Of a stretch of 64,000 nt of DNA, positions 10,910 through 64,000 are shown in pieces (positions within the stretch are counted from its first letter, which is position 1; the number at the start of each line of letters is the position of its first letter). Source of the stretch: Vicinamibacterales bacterium (GTDB taxonomy: Bacteria > Acidobacteriota > Vicinamibacteria > Vicinamibacterales > 2-12-FULL-66-21); the NCBI GenBank assembly GCA_035495555.1, contig DATJFQ010000042.1, positions 75,893 through 139,892 of the forward strand. The letters are read 5' to 3'. The notes below the pieces were generated by a model. It ran no database searches and was not told where the DNA came from. It saw nothing but the letters and a program-made list of their open reading frames with translations. The position numbers and the translations under genes are program-made.

Positions 10910-12400
10910 ATGCTCGGACGTCGAACGCTGCTCGTCAACCCGCCGCTGGTCAACGGCATCGCGTTCACCCGCCAGGGCCGCTGCCAGGAGCGTGAGGAAG
11001 TGCTCGGCACCACGAAGCCGCCCTACACGCTCGCGGTGATCGCATCACTGCTGCGCCAGAACGGCTGCGACCTGCGTCTGGTGGATCTCACGGCGCAGCG
11101 GCGGACCCCCACTGACCTGATTGCCGACCTCGATGCCGAGGGCTTCATCCCGACGCTCATCCTCTTTCCCAGCACGACGCCAACGCTCGCGGCCGATGTC
11201 GCGGCGATGGCGGCGCTCAAAGCGCGCTACAACGCGCCGATGTTCTGCTTCGGGCCGCACGCCTCGACGACGCCGCAGCAGTCGATGCTGCGCGCTCCCG
11301 ACGTCGACGGCATGTTCGTCGGCGAGCCCGAGGACGCGGCCGTGCAGCTCGCCATGCTCGAATCGATCGACGCGTTGCCCGCCGTGGCGAGCCTCACATG
11401 GCGCCGCGCAGGCACGATTTTCCCCAATACGGCCCACGGCTCGTACGGCGGATTTCTCTCGATGCCGTATCCATCGTGGGATCTGGTACCGCTGAAATCG
11501 TACTCGCTGCCGCTCGTCAATCGGCCATACGTCATCGTCGAAACGAGCCGCGGATGTCCCTACTCCTGCGACTTCTGCGTCGCGCCGATTCATCAGGGCC
11601 ACAAGTTCCGCGAACGCAGCGCAAAGGCGCTCGTCGACGACATCGAGCGAGGCTATCGCGAGTTCGGCATCGACTTCTTCTATCTGTGGGGCGACACGGT
11701 GACGCTCAACGTCAAGAGCTTCACCGCGTTCTGCGACGAGCTCATCGCGCGGAACCTGCCCATCCAGTGGTTCGGAAACGCGCGCGCGGACAACCTCACG
11801 GATCCGGCGTTTGTCCACCGCCTGCGCAAGGCCGGCTGCTGGATGCTCGCGCTCGGCATCGAGACCGAGTCGGAAGACATCCGTAAGAACATGGTGAAGC
11901 GGCTCGAGCGCCAGAAGATTCAGACCGCGTTCCGCAACATGCGCGAGGCGGGGATCAGGTCGTTCGCGTTTTTCATCTTCGGGTACCCCGGCGAGACGAT
12001 CGACACGATGGATCACACCGTCGACTACGCCATCGAACTCGACCCCGATTTCGCGAACTTCTACCCGGCCGTTCCTTATCCCGGCACGGCGCTCTACGCG
12101 AAAGCGGTGCAGGAAGGCTGGCTGGTCGAAGAAGACTGGTCGCGGATGGAGTACTCGTTTTACCTGATGAACGGCAACGGCCTCGACGAACGCGTCGTGT
12201 TCGACGCGATCAATCGCGCCAAGCGCCGGTTCTTTCTGAGGCCGTCCTATGTGGCGCGACGGCTCGGCGACGTCGTGAAGCTGATGGCGACCAAACCCGC
12301 CATCGTGCGGCAGGTGCTCGCACGCGCGATCTTCGGGACGCGAGTGCCGGCGCCGCCGCGTGCTGAAGCCGTCAGCCCTGGCGGCGCGGCCCGAATCTGA
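10910..12400 (+). CDS. B12-binding-domain radical SAM enzyme
   Basis: ATG at 10910 lies 2 nt after the upstream stop. The N-terminal LLVNPP...PPYTLAVIASLL resembles a B12-binding domain. CPYSCDFC radical SAM motif. The track ORF starting at 10538 is over-extended. Confidence 0.75.
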   Translation: MLGRRTLLVNPPLVNGIAFTRQGRCQEREEVLGTTKPPYTLAVIASLLRQNGCDLRLVDLTAQRRTPTDLIADLDAEGFIPTLILFPSTTPTLAADVAAMAALKARYNAPMFCFGPHASTTPQQSMLRAPDVDGMFVGEPEDAAVQLAMLESIDALPAVASLTWRRAGTIFPNTAHGSYGGFLSMPYPSWDLVPLKSYSLPLVNRPYVIVETSRGCPYSCDFCVAPIHQGHKFRERSAKALVDDIERGYREFGIDFFYLWGDTVTLNVKSFTAFCDELIARNLPIQWFGNARADNLTDPAFVHRLRKAGCWMLALGIETESEDIRKNMVKRLERQKIQTAFRNMREAGIRSFAFFIFGYPGETIDTMDHTVDYAIELDPDFANFYPAVPYPGTALYAKAVQEGWLVEEDWSRMEYSFYLMNGNGLDERVVFDAINRAKRRFFLRPSYVARRLGDVVKLMATKPAIVRQVLARAIFGTRVPAPPRAEAVSPGGAARI

Positions 12401-12407
12401 CTCCGTC

Positions 12408-14240
12408 TTACGGCTCGAAGGTGCCGCCGAGGATCAGCGGACTGTCGGGCGGCAGCCAGTTCCCCTGCCTGCAATACCAGCCTGCCACCGGCGCCGTGCC
12501 GCTGCACGTTCCGTCGTTCGTCGATACGATTAACAAGCTGCCTGGCGGCAGCCAGCCGCCGTTCTGACACACCCACCCGGCGCCGGGCTGCACGGACGTG
12601 CAGGAGCTGGTCGTCGTCGTTGTCGTCGTCGTCGTGCTGCCCGGCGGGAGCCAGTTGCCGTTTACGCACGTCCAGCCGGTCCCTGGCTGCACGCTCGTGC
12701 AGGAGCTGGTCGACGAGGTGGTCGTGGTCGTGCTGCCTGGAGGCAGCCAGTTGCCGTTCACGCACGTCCAGCCGGTCCCTGGCTGCACGCTGGTGCAGCT
12801 CCCCGTTGATCCTGTGCCGCCGGTGCTGGTCGTCGGCGGGAGCCATCCACCATTGACGCATGTCCAGCCCGGACCCGGCTGCACGGTCGTGCACCCGCCC
12901 GTCGTGCTGGTCGTTCCGCCGGTCGTCGTGCTCCCTGGCGGCAGCCAGCCGCCATTCACGCACGTCCAGTCCGCTCCGGGTTGAACCGTCGTGCAGCCGC
13001 CGGTCGTTCCCCCTGTTGAACCGCCGCCCGAGGTCGTGCCGCCGCCACCCGTGTAGCTGCCGCCAGGACCGCCACCGGTGGTTCCCGTTTGAAGGACCAC
13101 TTCACCGATCCCCTGGAACTGGGAGAAGTTGGGGGATCCTGAGCCGCGGCTGACGACGGTGAAGAAGCGGGACATCGTGGCGCTGGCAGCGACCCGCGGG
13201 TAGCGGACCGGATTGAAGCCGGTCGAGAGGGTCTGATCCGAGCCGAACCGGACGCCGCTTGCGTTCAGCTCCGCCACATGCAGTTCATCGGATCCGTCGA
13301 TTCCAACGATTGCGGAGGTGCCGCTGTTGCGGTTGTAGGCGATCGCCAGCGCGTCGTAGGACCCGAAGTTCGCGGCCGTGCCAAACCCGATGAGACCGCC
13401 GCTGTTGTCGAACTCCGCCACCTTGGCGTTTCGCGTGCCGGCCACGTCCTGATACCACGCCATGAGGTAATGCTGCGTCGAGGAATTGAACGCCACGTCC
13501 GTCATGAAGGCCTTGGCGCCGGAAAGAGAATTGAAGGCGGTCCGGCGGAACCCGGACGGATTGGATGCGGGAACGATCGCGAGCGCGGATGACAAGCCGT
13601 CGTTATCGCTGATCGAGACGCCGAATTCGTCTCGGACCGAATTCCATGCGACGCTGGGGTTTTCGCCCTGGCCCGCGGAGACGGTCACCGGCCCCGTCAG
13701 CGTGCTTCCGTCCCCCGCGAGGAGCTGAACTTGCGTGATGTGCGTGATCGTCTCGTACGCGACAAGAAACTTTCCGGAGGTTCGCGAGAAATCGATCCCT
13801 GGCCCTCGTTCGCCGTACGGTGATGCGCCCGAAACCGTCATGGTCGTCCCCATCGCACCTGATGGACACGCAATGGTCCGGGCTTTCAGGAGCATTCCGC
13901 TGGTCTGCTCTTCCGGCCAGACGACGAGGAAATTCCCGGCGTTCGGATTGAATCTCGCGCGCGGGAACGAACCGAACGGATGTCCCTGCGCAGGCTTCAT
14001 GAGGACGGTTCCGCTGGCGACACCATCGGAGCCGATGCACTGCGCGTAAATGTAGTCGACCCCGCCGACGATCAGCCCCCCGCCCGACTCGTCGTGCGCG
14101 ACGTCCACGCCTCGGATGAAGGTCGAAAGCGTGGTGAGGGTGTTCACCTTGCTGATTTGCGCAAACGACGGCGCGGACAGCAGGGCCATGGCCCCGATCA
14201 GCATCAGAGTGACGCGGCGAAATTGCACAGGCTGCTCCAT
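12408..14240 (-). CDS. Secreted protein: N-terminal beta-propeller-like region plus six C-terminal Cys-pair mini-domain repeats with Thr/Gly/Ser linkers
   Basis: Signal peptide RRVTLMLIGAMALLSAPSFAQ. Recurrent blade-like motifs (FLVVW, FLVAYE, PSVAWN, YLMAWY). Six copies of C-x4-P-x-x-GW-x-C-x-x-G-x-WLPP. Confidence 0.8.
   Translation of the reverse strand: MEQPVQFRRVTLMLIGAMALLSAPSFAQISKVNTLTTLSTFIRGVDVAHDESGGGLIVGGVDYIYAQCIGSDGVASGTVLMKPAQGHPFGSFPRARFNPNAGNFLVVWPEEQTSGMLLKARTIACPSGAMGTTMTVSGASPYGERGPGIDFSRTSGKFLVAYETITHITQVQLLAGDGSTLTGPVTVSAGQGENPSVAWNSVRDEFGVSISDNDGLSSALAIVPASNPSGFRRTAFNSLSGAKAFMTDVAFNSSTQHYLMAWYQDVAGTRNAKVAEFDNSGGLIGFGTAANFGSYDALAIAYNRNSGTSAIVGIDGSDELHVAELNASGVRFGSDQTLSTGFNPVRYPRVAASATMSRFFTVVSRGSGSPNFSQFQGIGEVVLQTGTTGGGPGGSYTGGGGTTSGGGSTGGTTGGCTTVQPGADWTCVNGGWLPPGSTTTGGTTSTTGGCTTVQPGPGWTCVNGGWLPPTTSTGGTGSTGSCTSVQPGTGWTCVNGNWLPPGSTTTTTSSTSSCTSVQPGTGWTCVNGNWLPPGSTTTTTTTTTSSCTSVQPGAGWVCQNGGWLPPGSLLIVSTNDGTCSGTAPVAGWYCRQGNWLPPDSPLILGGTFEP
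12411..12995 (-). repeat. In-frame tandem coding repeats (six units of about 96-102 bp) within the secreted protein gene
   Basis: Units 12603-12701 and 12702-12797 are near-identical at DNA level (ccagttgccgtt[t/c]acgcacgtccagccggtccctggctgcacgct...). Confidence 0.9.
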
Positions 14241-28971: not shown

Positions 28972-29376
28972 CTACAACAGTTTTCCCACTGCAAGATCGA
29001 GATTGAGTTCCGCCGGATCGATGTCGAACTGCTGCGCGAGATCCGTGATTGTCTCCTGCAGCTTCATCAGGGCCATGCCGACGTTCTCGGTTTCCTCGTC
29101 CGTGAGCGTCTGATTCTCCATCCGGCGAATCGCCTGCCGCTCGAGAATCTGGCGAATCAGATCGACGAGCGTCAGCACCAGTTTCATCACCGAACGGCGG
29201 ACGTCTTCCGGGTCCGCGTTCCATCTGGGCGGACCGTGTGACGCGGCCTGGGCGATCTGTTGTCGAATCGCGTCGATCTCACGCTCGGCGCTGACAACGG
29301 CGCGCGGGCGTGTGCGCTTGACCGGTGTATGTCGGCGACCGGCAGGCTGTCTGGCGCTCGGCTTTTTACGCGTCAC
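28972..29376 (-). CDS. gvpK: Gas vesicle protein GvpK
   Basis: KLVLTLVDLIRQILERQAIRRMENQTLTDEETENVGMALMKLQE matches the GvpK family. GTG at 29376 forms a GTGA overlap with the upstream stop. The alternative GTG at 29421 would add 15 aa. Confidence 0.85.
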   Translation of the reverse strand: MTRKKPSARQPAGRRHTPVKRTRPRAVVSAEREIDAIRQQIAQAASHGPPRWNADPEDVRRSVMKLVLTLVDLIRQILERQAIRRMENQTLTDEETENVGMALMKLQETITDLAQQFDIDPAELNLDLAVGKLL

Positions 29377-30023
29377 AACAGTTCCGGCGCGAACGCGTAC
29401 GGCGCGAAAGGGCCGGACCACGTCAGCCCTGGCGCGTGGGTCCGCACGTCGGCGGCAGCCGACGCGTACGCGCCGGCGCGCACGCGATCGACGAGATGGT
29501 ACAGCGCTGCGGGCACGATTGTCGTCGCCTCAGCAAAGCGCTCTTCGGCCGCGAGGTTCGCCAGACGTCGGACACGGCGGAACGACGAGGGCGCCGGCGG
29601 GTGCGCTGCGCGAGCGGCGCGCCGCAGATAGTCGGTGCCTGAACGCGTCCGCGCCGCTTGGGCGCGGGCGCGGGCGACGGGCTCCGCCCCCGCACTGCGC
29701 CATGTGAACTGCACGCGTCCCCGGACACGATCGAAGGCCTCGCGCAGTTCCTCGCGGCGCTCGACGAACGACGTCTCCAGGTCGGACGAACTGAGCAGCG
29801 TCCCGAAGCGCACCGGAAGAATGGCTGGAACGAGCGCGGCGAGGCGCTCGACGATACGTTCGTGGGCCTGCAGCGTTCCGAAGTCGAAAGGAGGCACATC
29901 CGCGCGCCGTTCGACCACCGCGAATCCTCCATCGATCCGCCGGACGGCGAGCGGACCGCTGAGGCCGCGTCCCGGTTTCGGGGGCGGCGCGTCGACGACC
30001 GCGAACACGTACCACGCCATCAC
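29373..30023 (-). CDS. Gas vesicle protein, GvpF/GvpL family (third copy)
   Basis: WYVFAVVD...AHERIVERLAALVPAILPVRFGTLLSS...RGRVQFTW matches the GvpL_GvpF pattern. Confidence 0.8.
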   Translation of the reverse strand: MMAWYVFAVVDAPPPKPGRGLSGPLAVRRIDGGFAVVERRADVPPFDFGTLQAHERIVERLAALVPAILPVRFGTLLSSSDLETSFVERREELREAFDRVRGRVQFTWRSAGAEPVARARAQAARTRSGTDYLRRAARAAHPPAPSSFRRVRRLANLAAEERFAEATTIVPAALYHLVDRVRAGAYASAAADVRTHAPGLTWSGPFAPYAFAPELL

Positions 30024-30394
30024 CGTGAGCGGAGCGGCAACACGCGATCCGCGGCGCAGAGCAGGGCGGACAGGCGCAGGTACACAAGATCGACGTTCGC
30101 GAGCGCCAGGATCACTTCCGCATTGAGCACGACGCCTTTGCTGAGCAGGTTATCCACGATGTCGAGAAGCGTTGCGTCGTCTGAATCGATGATGCGGCCC
30201 GCTTGACGCCTCGCGGACGCACCCGTGCGCGGACCCGGCTTGCGGCTGGACGGCGGACGCCGCCGAGGCGCAGACGGCTTCAGCGCCGGCCGGGCACGCC
30301 GGCCGCCGACGGTTGTATGCCGCGGTCGCGGTCCCACGGTGCTTCGGAGGGCAGCGCGCGGTGGACGCGGGCGGCCTTTACGTCTTTTCGCCAT
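30020..30394 (-). CDS. GvpA/J/M-family small gas vesicle protein (GvpM-like) with a roughly 70-aa basic N-terminal extension
   Basis: ATLLDIVDNLLSKGVVLNAEVILALANVDLVYLRLSALL core. The N-terminus MAKRRKGRPRPPRAALRS... is rich in R/P/K. Confidence 0.8.
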   Translation of the reverse strand: MAKRRKGRPRPPRAALRSTVGPRPRHTTVGGRRARPALKPSAPRRRPPSSRKPGPRTGASARRQAGRIIDSDDATLLDIVDNLLSKGVVLNAEVILALANVDLVYLRLSALLCAADRVLPLRSR

Positions 30395-31184
30395 CGTTCC
30401 CGATGAAATTGTAGGCCGGCCACGGTCCGGTCAGCGTCATCCTGGCCCCCGCGGCCGCGCAGCGCGCCGCCTCTTTCCGCGCTGCCGCCTTGAACCGCGC
30501 GCGCGAGGAACTCGGGACGAGAAACGCGGCATCGAGAAGCGGCGGTGTGGCGCCCTCATCGCGGCGTTCGGGCCGTTGCCGGGCGGCGCGAGTGATTGCC
30601 GCCAGCGATTCATACGCCTCTTCCGCGGCCGCCGCGGTTCGGAGGCGGAAATCGTGCTGCGCATCCCGGACAGCCTTGCGCGACGCGAGGAAAGCGGACC
30701 CCGTCAGGGGCGCTGACGTCCGCGCGCGTCGCACCGCCACCGACTGGACACCCGGTTCCGCGAACACCCTGATCCCCCACTCCTCACATCCGGCGATACG
30801 CCGCACCGCGCGGCGGATGTCTTCGCGCTCGCGCAGCAATTCTTCACGCGCGCTCTCGACGGACGAGAAGATTGTCAGCAGTTTCATGGGAATCACCGTC
30901 GATCCGCGGCGACGCGTGAAGTATTCGACGACCGCCTCGTGGCCGACCGCGATTGCAGACACCCACTCCAGGTCGCGCAATCCGGCATTCACCGCGTGCT
31001 CTCCGTACATCGCGATGGGCACCCCCGCGGCGATGAACCACAGCTTTCCCGTGAGCAGCACCGGCTCCGGCCGTGCAGCGCCGGGGATACCGGCGGGCAC
31101 GCCGCCGAGCGGCGGCCGCGAGGGCGACGCGACGACACAGTAGACGTACGTCGCGTTCACGGTGCTCAATTGACGGCGCGCCAT
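30378..31184 (-). CDS. Gas vesicle protein, GvpF/GvpL family (second copy)
   Basis: Start at MARRQLSTVNATYVYCVVAS. HEAVVEYFTRRRGSTVIPMKLLTIFSS...EEWGIRVF. The 407-aa track ORF is over-extended into the ArsA-like gene. Confidence 0.8.
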   Translation of the reverse strand: MARRQLSTVNATYVYCVVASPSRPPLGGVPAGIPGAARPEPVLLTGKLWFIAAGVPIAMYGEHAVNAGLRDLEWVSAIAVGHEAVVEYFTRRRGSTVIPMKLLTIFSSVESAREELLREREDIRRAVRRIAGCEEWGIRVFAEPGVQSVAVRRARTSAPLTGSAFLASRKAVRDAQHDFRLRTAAAAEEAYESLAAITRAARQRPERRDEGATPPLLDAAFLVPSSSRARFKAAARKEAARCAAAGARMTLTGPWPAYNFIGNDGEKT

Positions 31185-33061
31185 CGTGATCTCCACGCCT
31201 GCAGCACGTCGACGCCATGAGGCGGGGGCAGGGCGGATGGAGTGACGATGATAGCGTAAGGCCCGCGGTCCGCCAGTTGCGCGCGGAGGGAGCCGAGTTC
31301 GCGGCGCTGTCTCCCCTCGATCGAACGACAGCGGGGGCACGAGCCGGCGCCGAACGCGTTCACGATCACCGCGCGGACAGCCACACCAAGGGCGTCGAGC
31401 GACCGTTGAAGCGCCAGCGTTTCCTCGCGCGGCACCGCTGCGGCGCGGGTGACGATGACGAAGGCGGTTTGGTTCCTGTCGCGAACGATCGTGTCGAGCG
31501 CGCGCAGCCGCTGCGACAGATCGACAAGGAGCTGCGCGAACGCACCAGGGCGCACGATCTCGCGATACTTCAGGAGAATGGCCATCAAGGCCTGCGTCCA
31601 CTCGCGAAGGATTGCCGGTGTCTCGAGCAGCCGCAGCGCGTGGCCCGTCGGCGCCGTGTCGGTGACGATCGTGCGGTACGAACCGCGTCCGTTCAGCAGT
31701 TCTGCGACCTCCGCAATGGCGATCACTTCGTCGAGACCGGGCGGTGTGAATTCGATGAGTTCGCGGAGGGCGCTCCGGTCGGGGGTCGGGTCGAGCGTCG
31801 ACCGCGTCAGGCCGTCGAACATCGCGTCAACGGCGCCCGTGTAGCGGGCGCGAAACTGCTGCAGGCCGCGAGCGGCATCGATTTCGCGCACGTCGAGATT
31901 CGGAAGGCCCCCGGCCAACGGCGCTGCCGAATCGCTTACGCGCACGCCGAGCACGTCGCCGAGCGAGTGCGCGGGGTCGGTAGACAGGAGCAGAAACGAT
32001 TCGTTCGGACTCGCCCGTGCGAGATCGACCGCCAGCGCGGCGCCGCACGTCGTTTTCCCCACACCCCCCTTCCCGCTCACGAGCAGCCACCGCGCATCGA
32101 AGATCGACTTGCCAACAGCAGTCGTTCGAATGCCGTGGGCAATGGCTCCATACAGCCGCCGGCGAAGCGGTGACGGGCGCGTGACCTGTTGCGCCCGCGA
32201 ACAGGTGGATGCAAGCGACCGGAGCGCGGCGGCATTACGAGGTTCCGTCTCGGATTCCGCGACCGTTCTGACGCGGATGGCCGGAAAGCATGCGGCGATC
32301 GGTGCCAGCGCGCGCGCCTCGAAGCGGCGGCGCGCCGCATCCCACTCGCAGCCGCCGCGAGGCGTCGCGCGGTTCACGATGAGCGTTCGTACGCGAATGC
32401 GGCTGGCGGCGAGCGCGGTGAGCGCGTCGGCCGTCTCTTCCAGCGCCATTGGCTCCGGAAGCGTCACCCACACGAACTCGGATTGCCTCTCGTCTCGCAG
32501 GCGGGTCGTCAGCAGCGTCGAATCCTCGGCGAGCGACGCAATCAACCGGTCCGCCGCGTCCTCCCGATAGCGCCCCGTGAGCGCCCGGACCACACCCCGG
32601 TGGTGCAACTGCAGGCCGTCCAGCACCTCCGCCATACGGGCGGCGAGCACCGGCATCGCGAGGAGCCGCAGCGTGTGGCCAGTCGGCGCCGTGTCCACCA
32701 CGACTCGTTCGTAGCGTGATTCCGAGAGACGCACGATCTCGAGCAGCGCCGCGACTTCGTCGATTCCCGGGAGCGAGAGCGCCAGCAGCCGGTGGACATC
32801 GTCCTCGTCGAGGTACGTCCCGCGCACCGCGATGGCTGCGAGGAGATCCTCGCGCGGTGCCAGCCAGGCCCGGAATGCGGCCCTCGCATCGATCGCGCGC
32901 ACGTCCAGCCGCGCCGGACGGCCGGAAAATCCAAAGCTCCGACGGACGGAGGCCGCGGGGTCAGTGGAAACGAGCAGCGTCCGGCAGTGGTGGGCGGAGC
33001 GGAACGCGATGGCTGCTGCGCAGGTGGTCTTGCCGACCCCGCCTTTGCCGCCCACGAGCAC
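31166..33061 (-). CDS. Tandem-duplicated ArsA/Get3-type P-loop ATPase
   Basis: Two halves, each with a deviant Walker A GKGGVGKTT(C) and the DTAPTGH(T/A)LRLL signature. There is a CPRC pair near the C-terminus. GTG start 11 nt after the gvpG stop, and the 3-prime end overlaps the next gvpF/L by 19 nt. Confidence 0.85.
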   Translation of the reverse strand: MLVGGKGGVGKTTCAAAIAFRSAHHCRTLLVSTDPAASVRRSFGFSGRPARLDVRAIDARAAFRAWLAPREDLLAAIAVRGTYLDEDDVHRLLALSLPGIDEVAALLEIVRLSESRYERVVVDTAPTGHTLRLLAMPVLAARMAEVLDGLQLHHRGVVRALTGRYREDAADRLIASLAEDSTLLTTRLRDERQSEFVWVTLPEPMALEETADALTALAASRIRVRTLIVNRATPRGGCEWDAARRRFEARALAPIAACFPAIRVRTVAESETEPRNAAALRSLASTCSRAQQVTRPSPLRRRLYGAIAHGIRTTAVGKSIFDARWLLVSGKGGVGKTTCGAALAVDLARASPNESFLLLSTDPAHSLGDVLGVRVSDSAAPLAGGLPNLDVREIDAARGLQQFRARYTGAVDAMFDGLTRSTLDPTPDRSALRELIEFTPPGLDEVIAIAEVAELLNGRGSYRTIVTDTAPTGHALRLLETPAILREWTQALMAILLKYREIVRPGAFAQLLVDLSQRLRALDTIVRDRNQTAFVIVTRAAAVPREETLALQRSLDALGVAVRAVIVNAFGAGSCPRCRSIEGRQRRELGSLRAQLADRGPYAIIVTPSALPPPHGVDVLQAWRSRWRAVN

Positions 33062-33072
33062 GAGCGGCGCGT

Positions 33073-33372
33073 TCAGTGCTCGTCGCCCTCGAACGTGGCT
33101 TCGATGCCGGTGATGCGCATGTCGGACGAAGACGCGATGGCGGCTTCGCCGCCCCGCTGCCGTTCCCGAATTTCCCGGATACGCGCGAGGATCTCTGCTT
33201 CGAGCGCGTCGAACTCGCCCTGTGTCATCTCCCCCAGCTCGACGCGCATTTGCGCCGCGAGGAGGTGCTCGTGCAGCGCCGACTCGTCGTTCATCTCCGT
33301 GTCGACGGCCGCAGCCACCTTGTCGAGCACGAAGCGAATCCCCGAAATCAGCAGACTGTCAACGATCAGCAT
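33073..33372 (-). CDS. gvpG: Gas vesicle protein GvpG
   Basis: MLIVDSLLISGIRFVLDKVAAAVDTEMNDESALHEHLLAAQMRVELGEMTQGEFDALEAEILARIREI matches the GvpG family pattern. Confidence 0.8.
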   Translation of the reverse strand: MLIVDSLLISGIRFVLDKVAAAVDTEMNDESALHEHLLAAQMRVELGEMTQGEFDALEAEILARIREIRERQRGGEAAIASSSDMRITGIEATFEGDEH

Positions 33373-33402: not shown

Positions 33403-34320
33403 TCAATGCGCCCGTTCGAGCTTCAGCCGGATGTTCACGAAATTGTACGGCGGCCACGGGCCGGTGTACTTGAACGTGAGCTTGTCGAACTGCTGTCCGA
33501 TCTGCTTGACGCGCGCGTCGAAGGCGCCTTCCGTCTCACGCGAGACGAGGAACGCGGCGTTCATGATCATCCGATCCCCGATAGGCTTGTTCGATCGCGA
33601 CGCCACCGACACGTTGCGGAGCGCGTTGAAGATGTCTGCCACGTATCGTTCGGAACGCGACTGCAGGGCGGCGTCGATCAAGCGCCCGTACTGCATCCGC
33701 GCGAAATAGGTGGAGCCCTTCTGCGACGAGATCTCGGTTTTCAACCGCCGGATGTCTTCGTCGTCCTCTTCGATTTCGCGGATGATCTGATCGCGGTCCC
33801 AGAGCACTTTCAGGCCGAACTCGAACTTTTCCTGCATCTTGTTCAGCACGTCGCTGAACGCGTCGTACGCCGAGCGCAGCAGCTCCATGATGTCGTCGTC
33901 GGTCTTGAACACGGTGCCGAACGACATCGGGATGACCGTGTGCTTCTGCATGACGGTCTCGTTCACGCGCTGGTGCGCCAGCACGTTCTCGCGCGTCGGA
34001 TCCTGAATCACGATCGGCGTGTTCGATACGACGGCCCCGATGTCGCGATAGTGCACCGTGTGCACGTCGGCGGGCTCGGGGCCGAGTCCCAGCGGGCCGA
34101 AGCTCAGAGGCTGCTCCGATCGGATGATGCAGTAGACATACTTGCCTTCCGGCCGGTCCTCACGCCTGGTCGTCTGCGGGACCCGCACGCGTTCGAGCTT
34201 GCCCCGGCCGGCGTCCTGGCGGGCGATGCTGGCGCGCTCGAGCGGCGGCTTTCGCGCCGGCGGTTCCGGCTTGCGGGGCGAGGTCTTCGATTTCGACGCT
34301 TTCTTTGCCGCTTTTGCCAT
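33403..34320 (-). CDS. gvpF: Gas vesicle protein GvpF/GvpL family (first copy) with a roughly 60-aa Lys/Pro-rich N-terminal extension
   Basis: KYVYCIIRSEQ...IGAVVSNTP...AHQRVNETVMQKHTVIPMSFGTVFKTDDD...FEFGLKV...YTGPWPPYNF. Confidence 0.85.
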   Translation of the reverse strand: MAKAAKKASKSKTSPRKPEPPARKPPLERASIARQDAGRGKLERVRVPQTTRREDRPEGKYVYCIIRSEQPLSFGPLGLGPEPADVHTVHYRDIGAVVSNTPIVIQDPTRENVLAHQRVNETVMQKHTVIPMSFGTVFKTDDDIMELLRSAYDAFSDVLNKMQEKFEFGLKVLWDRDQIIREIEEDDEDIRRLKTEISSQKGSTYFARMQYGRLIDAALQSRSERYVADIFNALRNVSVASRSNKPIGDRMIMNAAFLVSRETEGAFDARVKQIGQQFDKLTFKYTGPWPPYNFVNIRLKLERAH

Positions 34321-34332
34321 ACGGTCTGAGCC

Positions 34333-34767
34333 TCAGGATCGCTTCCGGGTGCCGCGGGACGCCCGTCCGTCGGCCCCCGTCGGCTGCCGATCGAGCAGCC
34401 GCCGGATCTCTGCCACCAAGGCGTCCGGCAGGCACGGCTTGGTCACGAACGCATCACAACCGGCCTGCCTCGCGCCTTCGGCGTGTCCGGCGAGCGCATG
34501 GCCGGTCAACGCGACGACGGGGATCTTCCGGGTCCGTTCATCACTCTTGAGGCGCCGTGTCGCCTCCCACCCGTCCATGCGGGGGAGCGCGAGGTCCATG
34601 AGGATGATGTCGGGCATCAGGCGCTGCGCCTTCTCGATGGCCTCGATGCCGTTGGTCGCTTCCGCGACCTCGTACCCGGAGAACTGCAGGTACGCCGCGT
34701 ACATCTCACGTGCATCCTGATAGTCCTCCACGACGAGCACCAGGGGCTGGTCGCGCCGGCTCTTCAT
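34333..34767 (-). CDS. Single-domain (CheY-like) response regulator with no output domain
   Basis: LVLVVEDYQD...DIILMDLALPRMDGWE...PVVALTGH...FVTKP. Its ATG overlaps the kinase stop (ATGA). Confidence 0.85.
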   Translation of the reverse strand: MKSRRDQPLVLVVEDYQDAREMYAAYLQFSGYEVAEATNGIEAIEKAQRLMPDIILMDLALPRMDGWEATRRLKSDERTRKIPVVALTGHALAGHAEGARQAGCDAFVTKPCLPDALVAEIRRLLDRQPTGADGRASRGTRKRS

Positions 34768-36896
34768 CGCCGCCTCGGGCGCGCGGGCAGCCGCAGTGTA
34801 AACGTCGATCCTTCTCCCTGTGTACTGGTCAAGTCGATCGTGCCTCCGAGCATCTGTGACAATCTCCGGCAAATCGAGAGACCAAGACCCGTGCCGCCAT
34901 AGCCGCGCGTGGGTGAGCTGTCGAGCTGACGGAAGTCCTCGAAGACCTTGGCCTGATCTTCCTTCGCAATGCCGACACCCGTATCTCGCACGGAGATCGA
35001 CATCTGCTTGGCGCGGCGCTCGAATGCCGCCTGGATGGTGACCGATCCCGCCGGCGTGAACTTCAAGGCATTGCTGAGCAGGTTCAGCACGATCTGCTTG
35101 ACCTTCTGGCGGTCGCTCCGGAGTTTCGGCAGCGGTCCTTTGGCCTTCGACGTGACGGCGAGATTGCTGCGGCGGATGATCGGCTCGAGCTCCGCCATCA
35201 CCTCCGCGATCAAATCCCCCACAGCGAACGAGGTCACGTTCAGCGGCATCCGGCCGGCTTCGATCCGTGTGATGTCGAGGATGTCGTTGATCAGGGCGAG
35301 CAGGTGCCGCGAGTTCGAGTCAATCCGCGTCAGGCTCTTGCGCTGCGGCTCGGTCACCTGTCCGGTCACGTTGTTGAGCAGCATGTGCGTGTAGCCGAGG
35401 ATCGCGTTCAGCGGCGTCCGGAACTCGTGCGACATGTTGGCGAGGAACTGCGATTTCAGCGCGGACGCCTGCTCGAGCTCGATGTGCTGCCGCCGCAGCA
35501 GCTCGTTCTGTTCGGCGAGTTCGGCCGTCGCTTCCTGCACTTTCCGTTCGAGCTGTTCCGATGCGTGCTTCAACTGCTCGTACAGCTTTCCCTTCTCGAT
35601 CGCCTCCGTGAGATCGTGCAGGATCGTCACGACCCACATCAGTTCGCCCTGTTCCGACAGGATCGTGCCCGCCAGCGCTTCGACCGGCAGCGGACGACCT
35701 GTGACGGGGTCGGCCAGCTGGATCTCACCGCGATAGCGCTGCTCTCCCGAGCGCGTCAGCACGTTGGACACGAACGAGGTCAGGTTTGCGCCGTTCGCGC
35801 GCACGCGCCGCAGCGCGGCTTCCATCTCCGTCGCCGGCGACGGGCTGAACAGCCGTTCCGCCGGTGTATTCATCAACACGATGTCGCCTTCCTGATCCGT
35901 CACGAGGATCGGGTCGGCAACCGAGTCGATGATCAGATCCAGCCGGTGGCGCTCGTCGCGCACTTCCGCCTGAGCGACCCGCAGCGTCCGATAGCTCTCT
36001 TCGATTTCTTCCTTCGCGCGCGCCAGGTCCGTCACGTTGCGGAGGATCGATACGACGAACGTCCCCTGCCGCTCGTCCTTCGCGCGGGAGCTGAGCAGCT
36101 CGAACAGCAGATCGGACCCTTCGAGCGGGTCCACCAGCAGCAGCTCGCGGCGCGCGAGCTCCGACATCGTGACGGCGCTCGTGGACAACGCCGCAGAGAA
36201 CAACATGTTGTTGAGCGCGACGGCCCGGCGCCAGCCCTCGCTCGACTCTTCAGGGGCGGCAAACAGCTTCTCCGCATGGCTGTTCGCGATGATCAGTTTG
36301 CCTTCCGTGTCGGTGAGCAGAATCGGGTCGGTGACCGCATTGATGATGCTGTAGAGCAGCATCCGCTCCTGGCCGAATCGCGTCTCCGCCAGCAGTTGTC
36401 GGCTGAGCAGCCTCGAAACCTGTTTTCCGAGCGTGCGCGCCAGCCACAGCGTGTCCGGATCGATCTGCGGGGACGCCGTGCTGGCAAGGAGGAGCCCCTG
36501 CGCCGTTTCACGGGTGTCGGCCCGCAGCGGGATCGCGTGAAACGCGCGCGCCTCGATGGGCGCTCGCAGATGGGGCGGCAGGGTGGAGATGAAGACCGGC
36601 TCCGGACTCGAGAGCGCCTGGACGAGCGGGTGCTTCCCATCGTCCCGGCTCAGCGCGAAGTCCATGATCGCGGCGCTCGAAACGCCGTGCTCCGCGACGA
36701 GCAGCATCTCGTTCGAGAGCGCCTCGACGACGAGCACGACGGCCTGCTCCACGGGCGCGTGAGCGACGACCCAGTCCACGGCCCGCCGCGCGGACTCCTG
36801 GATGTCCATGCTCGTCAGCAGAAATTCGACGAGCGCGAGCTTCGGTTCCGAATCCAGCGACGACACGGACGCCATCTGCGCCGCCACGCGCGACAC
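34764..36896 (-). CDS. Cytoplasmic GAF/PAS-PAS sensor histidine kinase
   Basis: H-box SHEFRTPLNAILGY, N/G boxes LLSNALKFT and GTGLGLSICRRL, and two PAS-like segments (VTDPILLTDTEGKLIIAN, VADPILVTDQEGDIVLMN). No obvious TM segment. GTG start 6 nt after the gvpA stop. Confidence 0.85.
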   Translation of the reverse strand: MSRVAAQMASVSSLDSEPKLALVEFLLTSMDIQESARRAVDWVVAHAPVEQAVVLVVEALSNEMLLVAEHGVSSAAIMDFALSRDDGKHPLVQALSSPEPVFISTLPPHLRAPIEARAFHAIPLRADTRETAQGLLLASTASPQIDPDTLWLARTLGKQVSRLLSRQLLAETRFGQERMLLYSIINAVTDPILLTDTEGKLIIANSHAEKLFAAPEESSEGWRRAVALNNMLFSAALSTSAVTMSELARRELLLVDPLEGSDLLFELLSSRAKDERQGTFVVSILRNVTDLARAKEEIEESYRTLRVAQAEVRDERHRLDLIIDSVADPILVTDQEGDIVLMNTPAERLFSPSPATEMEAALRRVRANGANLTSFVSNVLTRSGEQRYRGEIQLADPVTGRPLPVEALAGTILSEQGELMWVVTILHDLTEAIEKGKLYEQLKHASEQLERKVQEATAELAEQNELLRRQHIELEQASALKSQFLANMSHEFRTPLNAILGYTHMLLNNVTGQVTEPQRKSLTRIDSNSRHLLALINDILDITRIEAGRMPLNVTSFAVGDLIAEVMAELEPIIRRSNLAVTSKAKGPLPKLRSDRQKVKQIVLNLLSNALKFTPAGSVTIQAAFERRAKQMSISVRDTGVGIAKEDQAKVFEDFRQLDSSPTRGYGGTGLGLSICRRLSQMLGGTIDLTSTQGEGSTFTLRLPARPRRR

Positions 36897-36902
36897 GGGT
36901 GT

Positions 36903-37223
36903 TTACCCCTCGACGTTTCGGCGGCGCCCGCTGCGTCCTTTGGACGCGGCGAGTTCGGCACGCAGTGCCGCGTTCTCGGCAATGACGTCCTGGTGGGAGG
37001 GCAGTTCGGCCGCGGGACGCGACACCGGGGCGACCTGGCCGACCGCTTCGGAATACTTCAGATAGGTGTCGATTGACGCCACCACGACGCGCGCCTCGAC
37101 GGTGATCAGGTCGATGCCCACCAGCGACACGCGAACCCACGCGTCGATGACGATGCCTTTGTCGAGCACGCGGTCGAGGACGTCGATGAGACTCGTGCCG
37201 CCTGCAGCTCGTTCAACTGCCAT
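36903..37223 (-). CDS. gvpA: Major gas vesicle structural protein GvpA (with C-terminal extension)
   Basis: [52 protein letters not shown] is near-canonical GvpA. A GGGAGAG Shine-Dalgarno lies 7 nt upstream of the ATG. Confidence 0.95.
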
Positions 37224-37247: not shown

Positions 37248-37583
37248 TCAACGCCGGCGGCGGGTCGCGCCCCGGGGGACTGAAAGTGCATCCACACGTG
37301 CCTGCAACTCCTGCAGCTGGGCTCGCAACTGGTCGTGTTCGGCGATGCCGGCGCGCGTCGCGCCGGGCGAGAGATCACGATCGTACCGCCACCAGTCGAG
37401 ACCGATCTCCTGAGCCTTGTCGAGCGAGCAGACGAGAAGGCGGATACGAATCGTCAGCAGCTCGACTTCGGCCAGGGACACCTTGATGTCGCCGGCGATG
37501 ACGAGCCCCTTGTCGAGCACGCGGTCCAGGACGTCGACCAGTCCTGTCCCGCGCTGGTGGGACCCTGGGAGCTCGAGAGGCAT
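37248..37583 (-). CDS. gvpJ: GvpJ-like small gas vesicle protein (GvpA/J family)
   Basis: [52 protein letters not shown]. Start at MPLELPG. The track ORF extending to 37721 runs into gnd. Confidence 0.85.
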   Translation of the reverse strand: MPLELPGSHQRGTGLVDVLDRVLDKGLVIAGDIKVSLAEVELLTIRIRLLVCSLDKAQEIGLDWWRYDRDLSPGATRAGIAEHDQLRAQLQELQARVDALSVPRGATRRRR

Positions 37584-37592
37584 GCGGTTGCG

Positions 37593-37598
37593 AATATA
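37593..37598 (-). promoter_or_regulatory. Putative -10 element (TATATT, preceded by TGG) of the gvp operon, 9 nt upstream of the gvpJ-like ATG
   Basis: Minus strand reads ...gcgtggTATATTcgcaaccgcATG. This is the only AT-rich hexamer in the 46-nt gnd-gvp spacer, and there is no clear -35. Confidence 0.3.
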
Positions 37599-37629
37599 CC
37601 ACGCAGATCTGAACAGCCTTATTGATGAG

Positions 37630-62861: not shown

Positions 62862-64000
62862 ATGGCCCATACGACGCCTGACGCCCGCATCCTGATCGCC
62901 GACGATCAACAGGACATCATCGACGCGCTCAAGCTGTTGCTCGTCGACGAGGGATATGAGGTCACCCCGGCACGCTCGCCGGCCGAAGCGCTCGAGCGCC
63001 TCGAGGCGTCCGACTGCGACCTCGCCGTCCTCGACCTCAATTACACCCGGGACACGACGTCCGGCCAGGAAGGCTATGACCTGATCGAGCGGCTCCGCGC
63101 GCTCGATCCGACACTCCCGATTCTCGTCATGACCGCCTGGAGCAGTATCGCGGGCGCCGTCGAAGCGATGCGCCGCGGCGCACGCGATTACATCGAGAAA
63201 CCCTGGGACGACGAGAAACTCCTCGCGACCGTCCGGACGCAGATCGAGCTTCGCCGTGCGGTCCGTCGCAACCATCGGCTGCAGGAAGCAAACACGCGCC
63301 TCCAGCGCGGCGTGACGCCGCCCTTTATTGGCGAAACGGCCGCCATCCGTGAGGTGCGGCAGACCATCGAGCGGATCGCACCGTCCGATGCAAGCGTCCT
63401 GATCACCGGCGAGCACGGAACGGGCAAAGAGGTCGTCGCGGCCTGGGTGCACGGGCTGAGCGATCGGAGAAACAAGCCGCTCGTCACGATGAATGCGGGC
63501 GGGCTCGCCGAAGGGATCGCGGAGAGCGAGCTGTTCGGGCACGTGAAGGGGGCGTTCACCGACGCCCGGGTCGACCGCATCGGCTGCTTCGAGATGGCGG
63601 ACGAGGGCACGCTGTTCCTCGATGAAATCGCGAACATGCCGGTGCGGCTGCAGGCCAAGCTGCTGCGCGTCCTGCAGACGGGCGAGGTGCAGCGTGTCGG
63701 CTCGTCGCGGCTGCGCTACGTCAACGTGCGCATGCTCTCGGCCACCAACGCCGACCTCCAGGCGGAGATTGCCGCGGGACGGTTTCGCGAGGACCTGCTG
63801 TATCGCCTGAATACCGTCGTGATTCACCTGCCGCCTCTCCGGGAGCGGAAGGACGACATCGAGCCGCTCGCGCGGCACTTCCTCGCGCATTATGCCGCTC
63901 GGTACCGGAAGCCGTTGACGGGATTCGCTGGAGACGCGATCTCCGCCCTTCGCGAACACCCGTGGCCAGGAAATGTCCGGGAGCTGGCGCACGCGGTCGA
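62862..64000 (+). CDS. Sigma-54-dependent response regulator (NtrC family), 3-prime truncated by the window end. It is absent from the ORF track because it has no stop in the window.
   Basis: My own translation from ATG 62862: MAHTTPDARILIADDQQDIIDALK... receiver domain, then an AAA+ domain with GEHGTGKE, ESELFGHVKGAFTDA and GTLFLDEI. The track's 62853..63992 minus-strand ORF is its antisense shadow. Confidence 0.85.
   Translation, partial: MAHTTPDARILIADDQQDIIDALKLLLVDEGYEVTPARSPAEALERLEASDCDLAVLDLNYTRDTTSGQEGYDLIERLRALDPTLPILVMTAWSSIAGAVEAMRRGARDYIEKPWDDEKLLATVRTQIELRRAVRRNHRLQEANTRLQRGVTPPFIGETAAIREVRQTIERIAPSDASVLITGEHGTGKEVVAAWVHGLSDRRNKPLVTMNAGGLAEGIAESELFGHVKGAFTDARVDRIGCFEMADEGTLFLDEIANMPVRLQAKLLRVLQTGEVQRVGSSRLRYVNVRMLSATNADLQAEIAAGRFREDLLYRLNTVVIHLPPLRERKDDIEPLARHFLAHYAARYRKPLTGFAGDAISALREHPWPGNVRELAHAV

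Follow-up and report, generated by a model that had tools for sequence, protein, structure and literature searches.

Organization of the locus

A sensor histidine kinase gene and a gene for a stand-alone response-regulator receiver lie together within a gas-vesicle (gvp) operon of a Vicinamibacterales bacterium (phylum Acidobacteriota). The DNA analyzed, in the following called the window, is a stretch of 64,000 nucleotides (nt) of contig DATJFQ010000042.1. All coordinates are positions in the window, taken from the list of open reading frames (ORFs) and the raw sequence, and every gene considered is encoded on the minus strand. The kinase gene (34764..36896; 710 amino acids (aa); identified by ORF, Pfam matches and structural model) begins at a predicted GTG start codon 6 nt (36897-36902) after the TAA stop codon of gvpA (36903-36905), with a Shine-Dalgarno-like GAGGGG run 9 nt 5' of the GTG. 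An alternative ATG start is found eight codons downstream of the GTG at 36896. The TGA stop codon of the kinase gene and the ATG start codon of the receiver gene (34333..34767, 144 aa) overlap as ATGA at 34764-34767, and 12 nt (34321-34332) separate the receiver stop codon from the start of the first of three gvpF/L copies. All three junctions had been given exactly in an earlier reading of the sequence alone (the original prediction). It had also placed the pair inside the gvp cluster rather than beside it, and the same gene order and junctions in more than 35 loci of three phyla bear this out; such an arrangement goes far beyond chance. The pair appears to be neither an insertion nor a neighbor but a cognate two-component phospho-switch that forms part of the operon itself, in a type of gvp operon that is widespread.

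The first gene of the operon, here and in all complete loci compared, is a gvpJ-like member of the GvpA/J/M family (37248..37583; Pfam Gas_vesicle, E 8e-17). It is followed by gvpA (36903..37223; Gas_vesicle, E 9e-17), which encodes a shell protein of 106 aa with 81-95% identity to its relatives in the family of the window organism. Behind the pair, gvpF/L copy 1 (gvpF1; 33403..34320; Pfam GvpL_GvpF, E 2e-76) encodes a protein whose N-terminus is extended by a basic stretch of about 55 aa. The remainder of the operon (28972..33372) comprises gvpG (33073-33372), the gene of a two-domain ArsA/Get3-like ATPase (31166-33061), gvpF2 (30378-31184), a gvpS/M-like gene (30020-30394) and gvpF3 (29373-30023), all assigned by Pfam, as well as gvpK (28972-29421), which was named from its sequence, outside the Pfam scan. 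The genes gvpN, gvpC and gvpO are lacking from this cluster type. Upstream of the operon, on the same strand, lie zwf-opcA-gnd, and the spacer from the gnd stop codon to the gvpJ-like ATG (37584..37629) is promoter-like according to the comparison of 25 upstream regions described below.

Domain structure of the kinase and the receiver

The C-terminal half of the kinase is of the classical type, with a HisKA dimerization and phospho-acceptor domain (residues 481-548; 35253..35456; Pfam E 6e-21) and a HATPase_c catalytic domain (residues 595-706; 34779..35114; E 1.5e-30). The phospho-acceptor histidine H490 (codon 35427-35429) lies in the motif SHEFRTPLN. Residues 1-180 gave no match in Pfam, and a profile search of the N-terminal domain against PDB sequences returned nothing useful. 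AlphaFold2 modeled residues 1-175, on the basis of 35 orthologues, with a predicted local distance difference test score (pLDDT) of 92 and a predicted template modeling (TM) score (pTM) of 0.86. The top Foldseek matches of this model are almost all solved GAF domains (E 1e-7, TM 0.64-0.71), including those of Lcd1 and PtsP and NtrC-like GAFs, and the N-terminus (residues 13-173; 36378..36860) is accordingly modeled as a divergent GAF fold.

In the AlphaFold2 model of the full-length kinase (25 orthologues, mean pLDDT 76) two PAS modules of the same topology, each with a long helical insert, occupy residues from about 182 to 290 and from 318 to 430, followed by a coiled coil that runs into the DHp helix. 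Module A (36027..36353) is PAS-like by the model and by a Pfam match below threshold at residues 184-221; its equivalent in the Myxococcus xanthus orthologue matches PAS_4. Module B (residues 318-432; 35601..35945) is detected directly as Pfam PAS (E 6e-14). A fold search with the whole kinase delivered only generic multi-domain kinases and phytochromes, and NCBIfam gave no specific family, every match being far under the cut-off. The highest mean of any 19-residue Kyte-Doolittle window is 1.49; the kinase is therefore without an evident transmembrane segment, and a membrane sensor is ruled out.

In the receiver Pfam recognizes Response_reg (residues 10-121) and nothing else. The original prediction, in which the HisKA/HATPase core of a kinase with no obvious transmembrane segment is preceded by a GAF-like N-terminus and two PAS-like modules, and in which this kinase is paired with a 144-aa receiver lacking an output domain, agrees with these results of Pfam, AlphaFold2, Foldseek and the hydropathy profile. 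H490, the N box and the G box are identical in all of 25 kinase orthologues, and the motifs DTGVGI and GGTGLGL are invariant or nearly so. The receiver residues D15, D58 (codon 34594-34596) and K110 are invariant, T88 is nearly invariant, and F107 occupies the aromatic switch position. A HisKA and HATPase_c kinase, a complete receiver pocket and genetic pairing are thus present. The assignment of kinase and receiver as a cognate switch integral to the operon is well supported.

Conservation of the operon type

Among 24 genomes from other genera of the family to which the window organism belongs, 20 encode a full-length kinase orthologue (68-91% identity). These are exactly the genomes with Gas_vesicle genes; the four genomes without gvp genes also lack the kinase. 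The order gvpJ-gvpA-kinase-receiver-gvpF-gvpG-(arsA)-gvpF-gvpS-gvpF-gvpK is found in 20/20 of the family loci, within the reach of the contigs, and the pair is absent from none of the fetched family loci. The same gene order occurs in a genome of Rokuibacteriota (locus L003) and in Myxococcota with small genomes. Locus L003 contains in addition an extra pair of kinase and receiver-only genes (11474-12904) between gvpF1 and gvpG. Another side observation concerns a family genome with a second, partial copy (L093, G012:C4) beside its locus L088 (G012:C29): the copy comprises an internally deleted gvpJ together with gvpA, kinase, receiver and gvpF, with unrelated genes thereafter.

The junctions remain close. 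Where the kinase start could be called, with the first start codon after the gvpA stop taken as the start, the gap between gvpA and kinase is 0-13 nt in 22 of 23 loci; L004, with 54 nt, is the exception. Most starts called in this way are GTG or TTG, which suggests a low, coupled translation of the kinase directly behind a highly expressed shell gene. Kinase and receiver genes overlap by 4 nt (ATGA, GTGA or TTGA) in 15 of 26 loci and are at most 10 nt apart in 22 of 26, and the ten Myxococcota loci in which both ends could be read off show the overlap as well. The gap between receiver and gvpF ranges from 2 to 61 nt. Wherever gvp genes remain, the gene after the receiver is gvpF1, except in L127, where the copy is closer to gvpF2. 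The partial copies L004 and L093 keep gvpA-kinase-receiver-gvpF as a unit. No arsA was detected in two of 18 complete loci of family relatives (L086, L095), and because both retain the pair, the ArsA/Get3-like ATPase was rejected as an obligate partner of the receiver.

The ratio of nonsynonymous to synonymous substitution rates (dN/dS) was calculated for 14 loci of Acidobacteriota. The medians are 0.10 for gvpJ, 0.06 for gvpA, 0.17 for the kinase, 0.11 for the receiver and 0.14 for gvpF1, and 0.23-0.45 for gvpG, arsA, gvpF2, gvpF3 and gvpK. The five genes at the head of the operon, from gvpJ to gvpF1, are the most constrained block, and kinase and receiver are as constrained as the shell genes, with all catalytic residues kept. 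Variation in the kinase is greatest in the GAF domain, where mean column identity is 40% as against 75% over the entire protein. Residues 176-470 hardly vary, and PAS module A remains nearly invariant across phyla. A search of metagenome proteins with the kinase detected 3829 relatives at E 1e-5 or better, and the best 120 of these are all at least 82% identical.

Erosion of the operon in Myxococcota

Among 121 sampled genomes of the order holding Pyxidicoccus (Myxococcales), the kinase was found in 40 and Gas_vesicle genes in 35. In 18 small genomes kinase and gvp genes lie side by side; five of the six loci fetched from this group are complete operons, and in the sixth (L122) the gene order matches, with arsA absent from the fetched stretch. 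Fourteen genomes are positive for gvp genes without this kinase and therefore contain other cluster types. Among the 40 kinase-positive genomes, 19, mostly of 9-13 Mb, are entirely free of Gas_vesicle matches.

The large genomes of Myxococcaceae contain a relic of four genes (L005, L117-L121, L210, L224, L228 and L215, the last being M. xanthus AM003), and in most of the large genomes of this kind that were sampled Gas_vesicle matches are lacking altogether. The first is a GvpA-like ORF of 63-72 aa, which keeps the GvpA N-terminus and ARIVV but has lost the hydrophobic beta-hairpin; Pfam aligns it with model positions 1-14 of 39 only (E 0.017). Kinase and receiver follow, again with the ATGA overlap, and the fourth gene encodes an intact GvpF-like protein (Pfam E 1e-62), whose ORF overlaps that of the receiver by 4 nt in M. 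xanthus AM003. Carriers of the receiver gene were located by an exact 41-nt pattern from it and include Myxococcus xanthus, M. vastator, M. eversor, Corallococcus coralloides, C. exercitus, Pyxidicoccus fallax, Citreicoccus, Archangium and Vitiosangium. In the relic, dN/dS is 0.08-0.30 for the receiver and 0.27-0.42 for the kinase. This erosion series across named Myxococcaceae and Archangiaceae, including the M. xanthus relic, is reported here for the first time. The record BNCN01000002.1 (L239), titled 'Comamonas sp. KCTC 72670', also bears a receiver gene of the Myxococcaceae type; its name looks wrong, or the assembly is myxobacterial.

Promoter and transcription signals

Upstream sequences were compared for 25 regions, including L001-L003 and L081-L100; in 24 of them the region before the gvpJ-like start was used and in L004 the region before gvpA. 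The comparison revealed a conserved element consisting of TTGCC(T), a spacer of about 17 nt and (T)GnGATATAGT, which ends 9-10 nt before the ATG. The pattern TTGnnn-N16-18-TATAnT is located at this fixed place just before the start codon in 18 of the 25 regions, and no Shine-Dalgarno sequence precedes the gvpJ-like start. In the window the -10-like sequence TATATT (37593-37598) lies 9 nt before the gvpJ-like ATG; the match of this copy is good at -10 and weak at -35. Most loci contain a short GC-rich dyad in the spacer, for example GCCCCCGGGGC, with CAGATCTG as the version of the window. Its symmetry is kept while its sequence varies between loci, and it may serve as an operator or play a structural role.

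Around the pair itself neither a promoter-like (sigma-70-like) nor a terminator-like site was identified, terminator-like matches being fewer than in shuffled sequences. The RNA structure at the junctions is ordinary, with z-scores against shuffles of -1.9 for gvpA/kinase and -0.9 for receiver/gvpF. Since the conserved element stands only before gvpJ, the operon appears to be driven from there by a predicted near-leaderless promoter of the sigma-70 type of its own, and the pair would be expressed within the operon. Co-transcription of the pair with the gvp genes, as originally predicted, is strongly supported by this single promoter-like element together with the tight, conserved junctions. 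Matches resembling the -24/-12 sequences of sigma-54 promoters occur in two of the 25 regions, at varying positions.

Comparison with known systems

Kinase and receiver genes within a gvp cluster are a known kind of arrangement. The nearest known counterpart is GvrB/GvrC, with GvrA, of the gas-vesicle locus of Serratia sp. ATCC 39006, whose layout is shared by other Proteobacteria, and a PAS kinase with an output-less receiver is found in a locus of Burkholderiales (L112). This locus has the order NtrC-like gene, Hsp20 gene, AAA ATPase gene, gvpF, PAS-HisKA-HATPase kinase, receiver and gvpA; its receiver-only protein has 139 aa, and the gene overlaps that of the kinase by 1 nt. For protein comparison the GvrB-like and GvrC-like proteins of L112 were used. 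The window proteins are 26% identical to the GvrB-like and 28% identical to the GvrC-like protein, a generic level in a pairwise comparison only.

Several features set the operon of the window apart from this type. The order is gvpA-kinase-receiver-gvpF, the cluster lacks gvpN, gvpC and gvpO, and the sensor is of the form GAF-PAS-PAS instead of having a single PAS. Unlike in the system with GvrA, Pfam detects no Sigma54_activat domain in the operon, and no NtrC-type activator lies in or beside the cluster. About 28 NtrC-type activators are encoded in the genome, the nearest at 63327-63824 of the window, some 26 kb off. The promoter is sigma-70-like and not of the -24/-12 kind. Control of the sigma-54/GvrA type was therefore rejected, as the cluster is without an enhancer-binding protein and no -24/-12 sequence is conserved. 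Two loci from other families of the taxonomic order of the window organism, L243 and L244 (genomes G037 and G038), show the layout gvpF-(gvpF)-PAS kinase-gvpA, which resembles that of proteobacteria; two types of kinase-bearing gvp clusters therefore coexist in one acidobacterial order.

Cytoplasmic GAF/PAS kinases with an adjacent receiver-only partner are also known from Cph1-Rcp1 and LovK-LovR, in which the output proceeds via protein contacts or phosphate flux. The system described here differs from these in lacking the bilin or LOV cysteine and the order PAS-GAF-PHY, and in the position of the pair among the structural genes of an organelle. In haloarchaea the regulators GvpD and GvpE are likewise encoded within the gvp cluster (PMC9501494; PMC4982088), but they belong to unrelated protein families, GvpE activates transcription, and two-component chemistry is not involved. 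Castillo and Saier described the link between ArsA and gvp genes in Acidobacteria in 2010 without mention of a kinase or response regulator (PMC2963123). A literature search found no publication on the present type of kinase-receiver gvp operon. New here are the conserved promoter-like element, the cysteine-free sensor and the assignment of the GAF fold.

Possible input of the sensor

Residues 1-470 of the kinase, the sensor half, contain no cysteine in the window protein and in 15 of 24 aligned orthologues, and no cysteine column is conserved in this half among the 24. A LOV adduct, a bilin thioether, an iron-sulfur (Fe-S) cluster and a thiol switch are ruled out because the sensor half is without cysteine. 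No histidine is present in the F-alpha helices of the two PAS modules (220-241 and 358-381), which makes heme binding of the FixL type unlikely. The redox, oxygen or light inputs suggested in the original prediction are unsupported. A non-covalent flavin or a metabolite ligand is possible. The near invariance of the PAS modules as opposed to the variable GAF domain points to a conserved ligand or protein partner.

Output of the receiver

Because the receiver has no output domain, it must act via protein-protein contact. In the mechanism which we tentatively prefer, and which is put somewhat short of an even chance, the receiver would exert its control at the GvpA/GvpF1 step and gate assembly post-translationally. 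The soluble GAF-PAS-PAS kinase would bind a cytoplasmic ligand or partner and autophosphorylate on H490, the phosphate would be passed to D58 of the receiver, and the proteins encoded together with the pair on one transcript would be gated in their assembly, after translation. The GvpA/GvpF1 step is the leading candidate target. GvpF binds monomeric GvpA in Halobacterium (PMC9501494), and the pair sits between gvpA and gvpF1. Kinase and receiver are made only along with their presumed clients. Both the partial copies and the relic of Myxococcaceae retain GvpA or a GvpA-like ORF, kinase, receiver and GvpF or a GvpF-like protein jointly, and the joint retention of receiver and GvpF-like protein in Myxococcaceae favors a post-translational output.

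Several observations weigh against this mechanism. GvrB and GvrC of Serratia, the sole experimentally studied analogues, affect the transcription of gvpA1 (PMC4982088). It is not unlikely that the pair came to lie next to one of three gvpF genes in an operon of 11 genes by chance. In the relic the constraint on the Gvp remnants is relaxed, with dN/dS of 0.57-0.72 for the GvpF-like and 0.25-0.97 for the GvpA-like gene. Archangium (L209, and L235 from Archangium or a metagenome-assembled genome) and Vitiosangium keep kinase and receiver with no Gvp gene adjacent. In Vitiosangium sp. (L212, 2814-4684) a kinase of 488 aa with an unrelated N-terminus is followed by the receiver with the ATGA overlap; the pair occupies the same chromosomal place as the M. 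xanthus relic, with the same DUF4340 neighbor. The receiver can therefore serve a purpose in the absence of GvpF.

The retention of kinase and receiver alone in genomes of the Archangiaceae type favors instead a relay to an unlinked target, which is a substantial possibility and ranks second. The phosphorylated receiver, or the kinase via a second target, would signal to a partner encoded elsewhere, for which a DNA-binding regulator, a factor associated with RNA polymerase and a ChpT-like phosphotransferase are candidates. The gvpJ promoter and possibly other genes would be controlled in this way, in an autoregulated circuit comparable to the action of GvrB and GvrC on gvpA1. Kinase and receiver are the most persistent genes as the cluster erodes, and in Myxococcaceae they are more constrained than the Gvp remnants. 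Many single-domain receivers, such as DivK, MrrA, SdrG and LovR, work within signaling networks. The GC-rich dyad in the spacer of the gvpJ promoter could be an operator; its sequence, however, differs between loci. GvrA, GvrB and GvrC are each needed for full transcription of gvpA1 in Serratia (PMC4982088), but the present cluster type has no conserved DNA-binding protein, either within the cluster or next to it. The genome contains a single Hpt match, located inside a 714-aa frame on another contig, and no free Hpt was detected, although a divergent Hpt or ChpT-like protein could be missed by the search. As the pair lies behind gvpA, it is made only once the operon is transcribed, which also speaks against an unlinked output.

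It is unlikely that the receiver mainly serves as a sink for phosphate or feeds back allosterically on its own kinase, with the relevant output of the kinase elsewhere. Soluble PAS kinases with single-domain receivers often work in this manner, as in LovK-LovR or DivK, and the E/DxxT/N motif of HisKA (HEFRT) is typical of bifunctional kinase-phosphatases. Translational coupling would moreover set the ratio of receiver to kinase. Nevertheless, the receiver is better conserved across the three phyla (63-79% identity) than the kinase (52-56% in full-length matches outside the family), its conserved region includes the alpha4-beta5-alpha5 face (ALTGHAL..GH...AGCD.FVTKPCLPD), the usual partner surface, and no second substrate of the kinase is evident.

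An assembly checkpoint is judged improbable. Here the nearly invariant PAS modules would sense not an environmental cue but how much shell protein is still unassembled, by way of the GvpA N-terminal helix or a GvpA-GvpF complex, and the phosphorylated receiver would tune the GvpF chaperone step. The relic of Myxococcaceae, in which the GvpA N-terminal helix, kinase, receiver and GvpF-like protein remain while the wall-forming beta-hairpin and all other gvp genes are lost, would fit a checkpoint as the bare sensing triad, reused for another purpose. That the two-component system came to the operon by chance and serves an unrelated pathway is very improbable: its persistence in myxobacteria without gas-vesicle genes would agree with a mere passenger, but it co-occurs perfectly with gvp genes in the family of the window organism, holds an identical position in three phyla, is as constrained as the shell genes, and is never lost, whereas arsA is lost from some clusters.

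Implications for gas-vesicle biology

Gas vesicles are studied as buoyancy organelles and as acoustic reporter genes, and the switching of their assembly is known only in outline, from haloarchaea (GvpD/E) and Serratia (GvrA/B/C). Judging from the metagenome relatives of the kinase, the present operon type is widely distributed and very frequent in soil Acidobacteriota; its predicted phospho-switch is placed between the gene of the shell protein and that of the likely chaperone. If the receiver acts on assembly, as in the preferred mechanism, it would represent the first case in which gas-vesicle formation is controlled by a signal at the post-translational level, and the switch might offer a handle for engineered reporters. 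The Vicinamibacterales with the full operon are mostly uncultured, and the relic in M. xanthus provides a genetically tractable route to the partner of the receiver.

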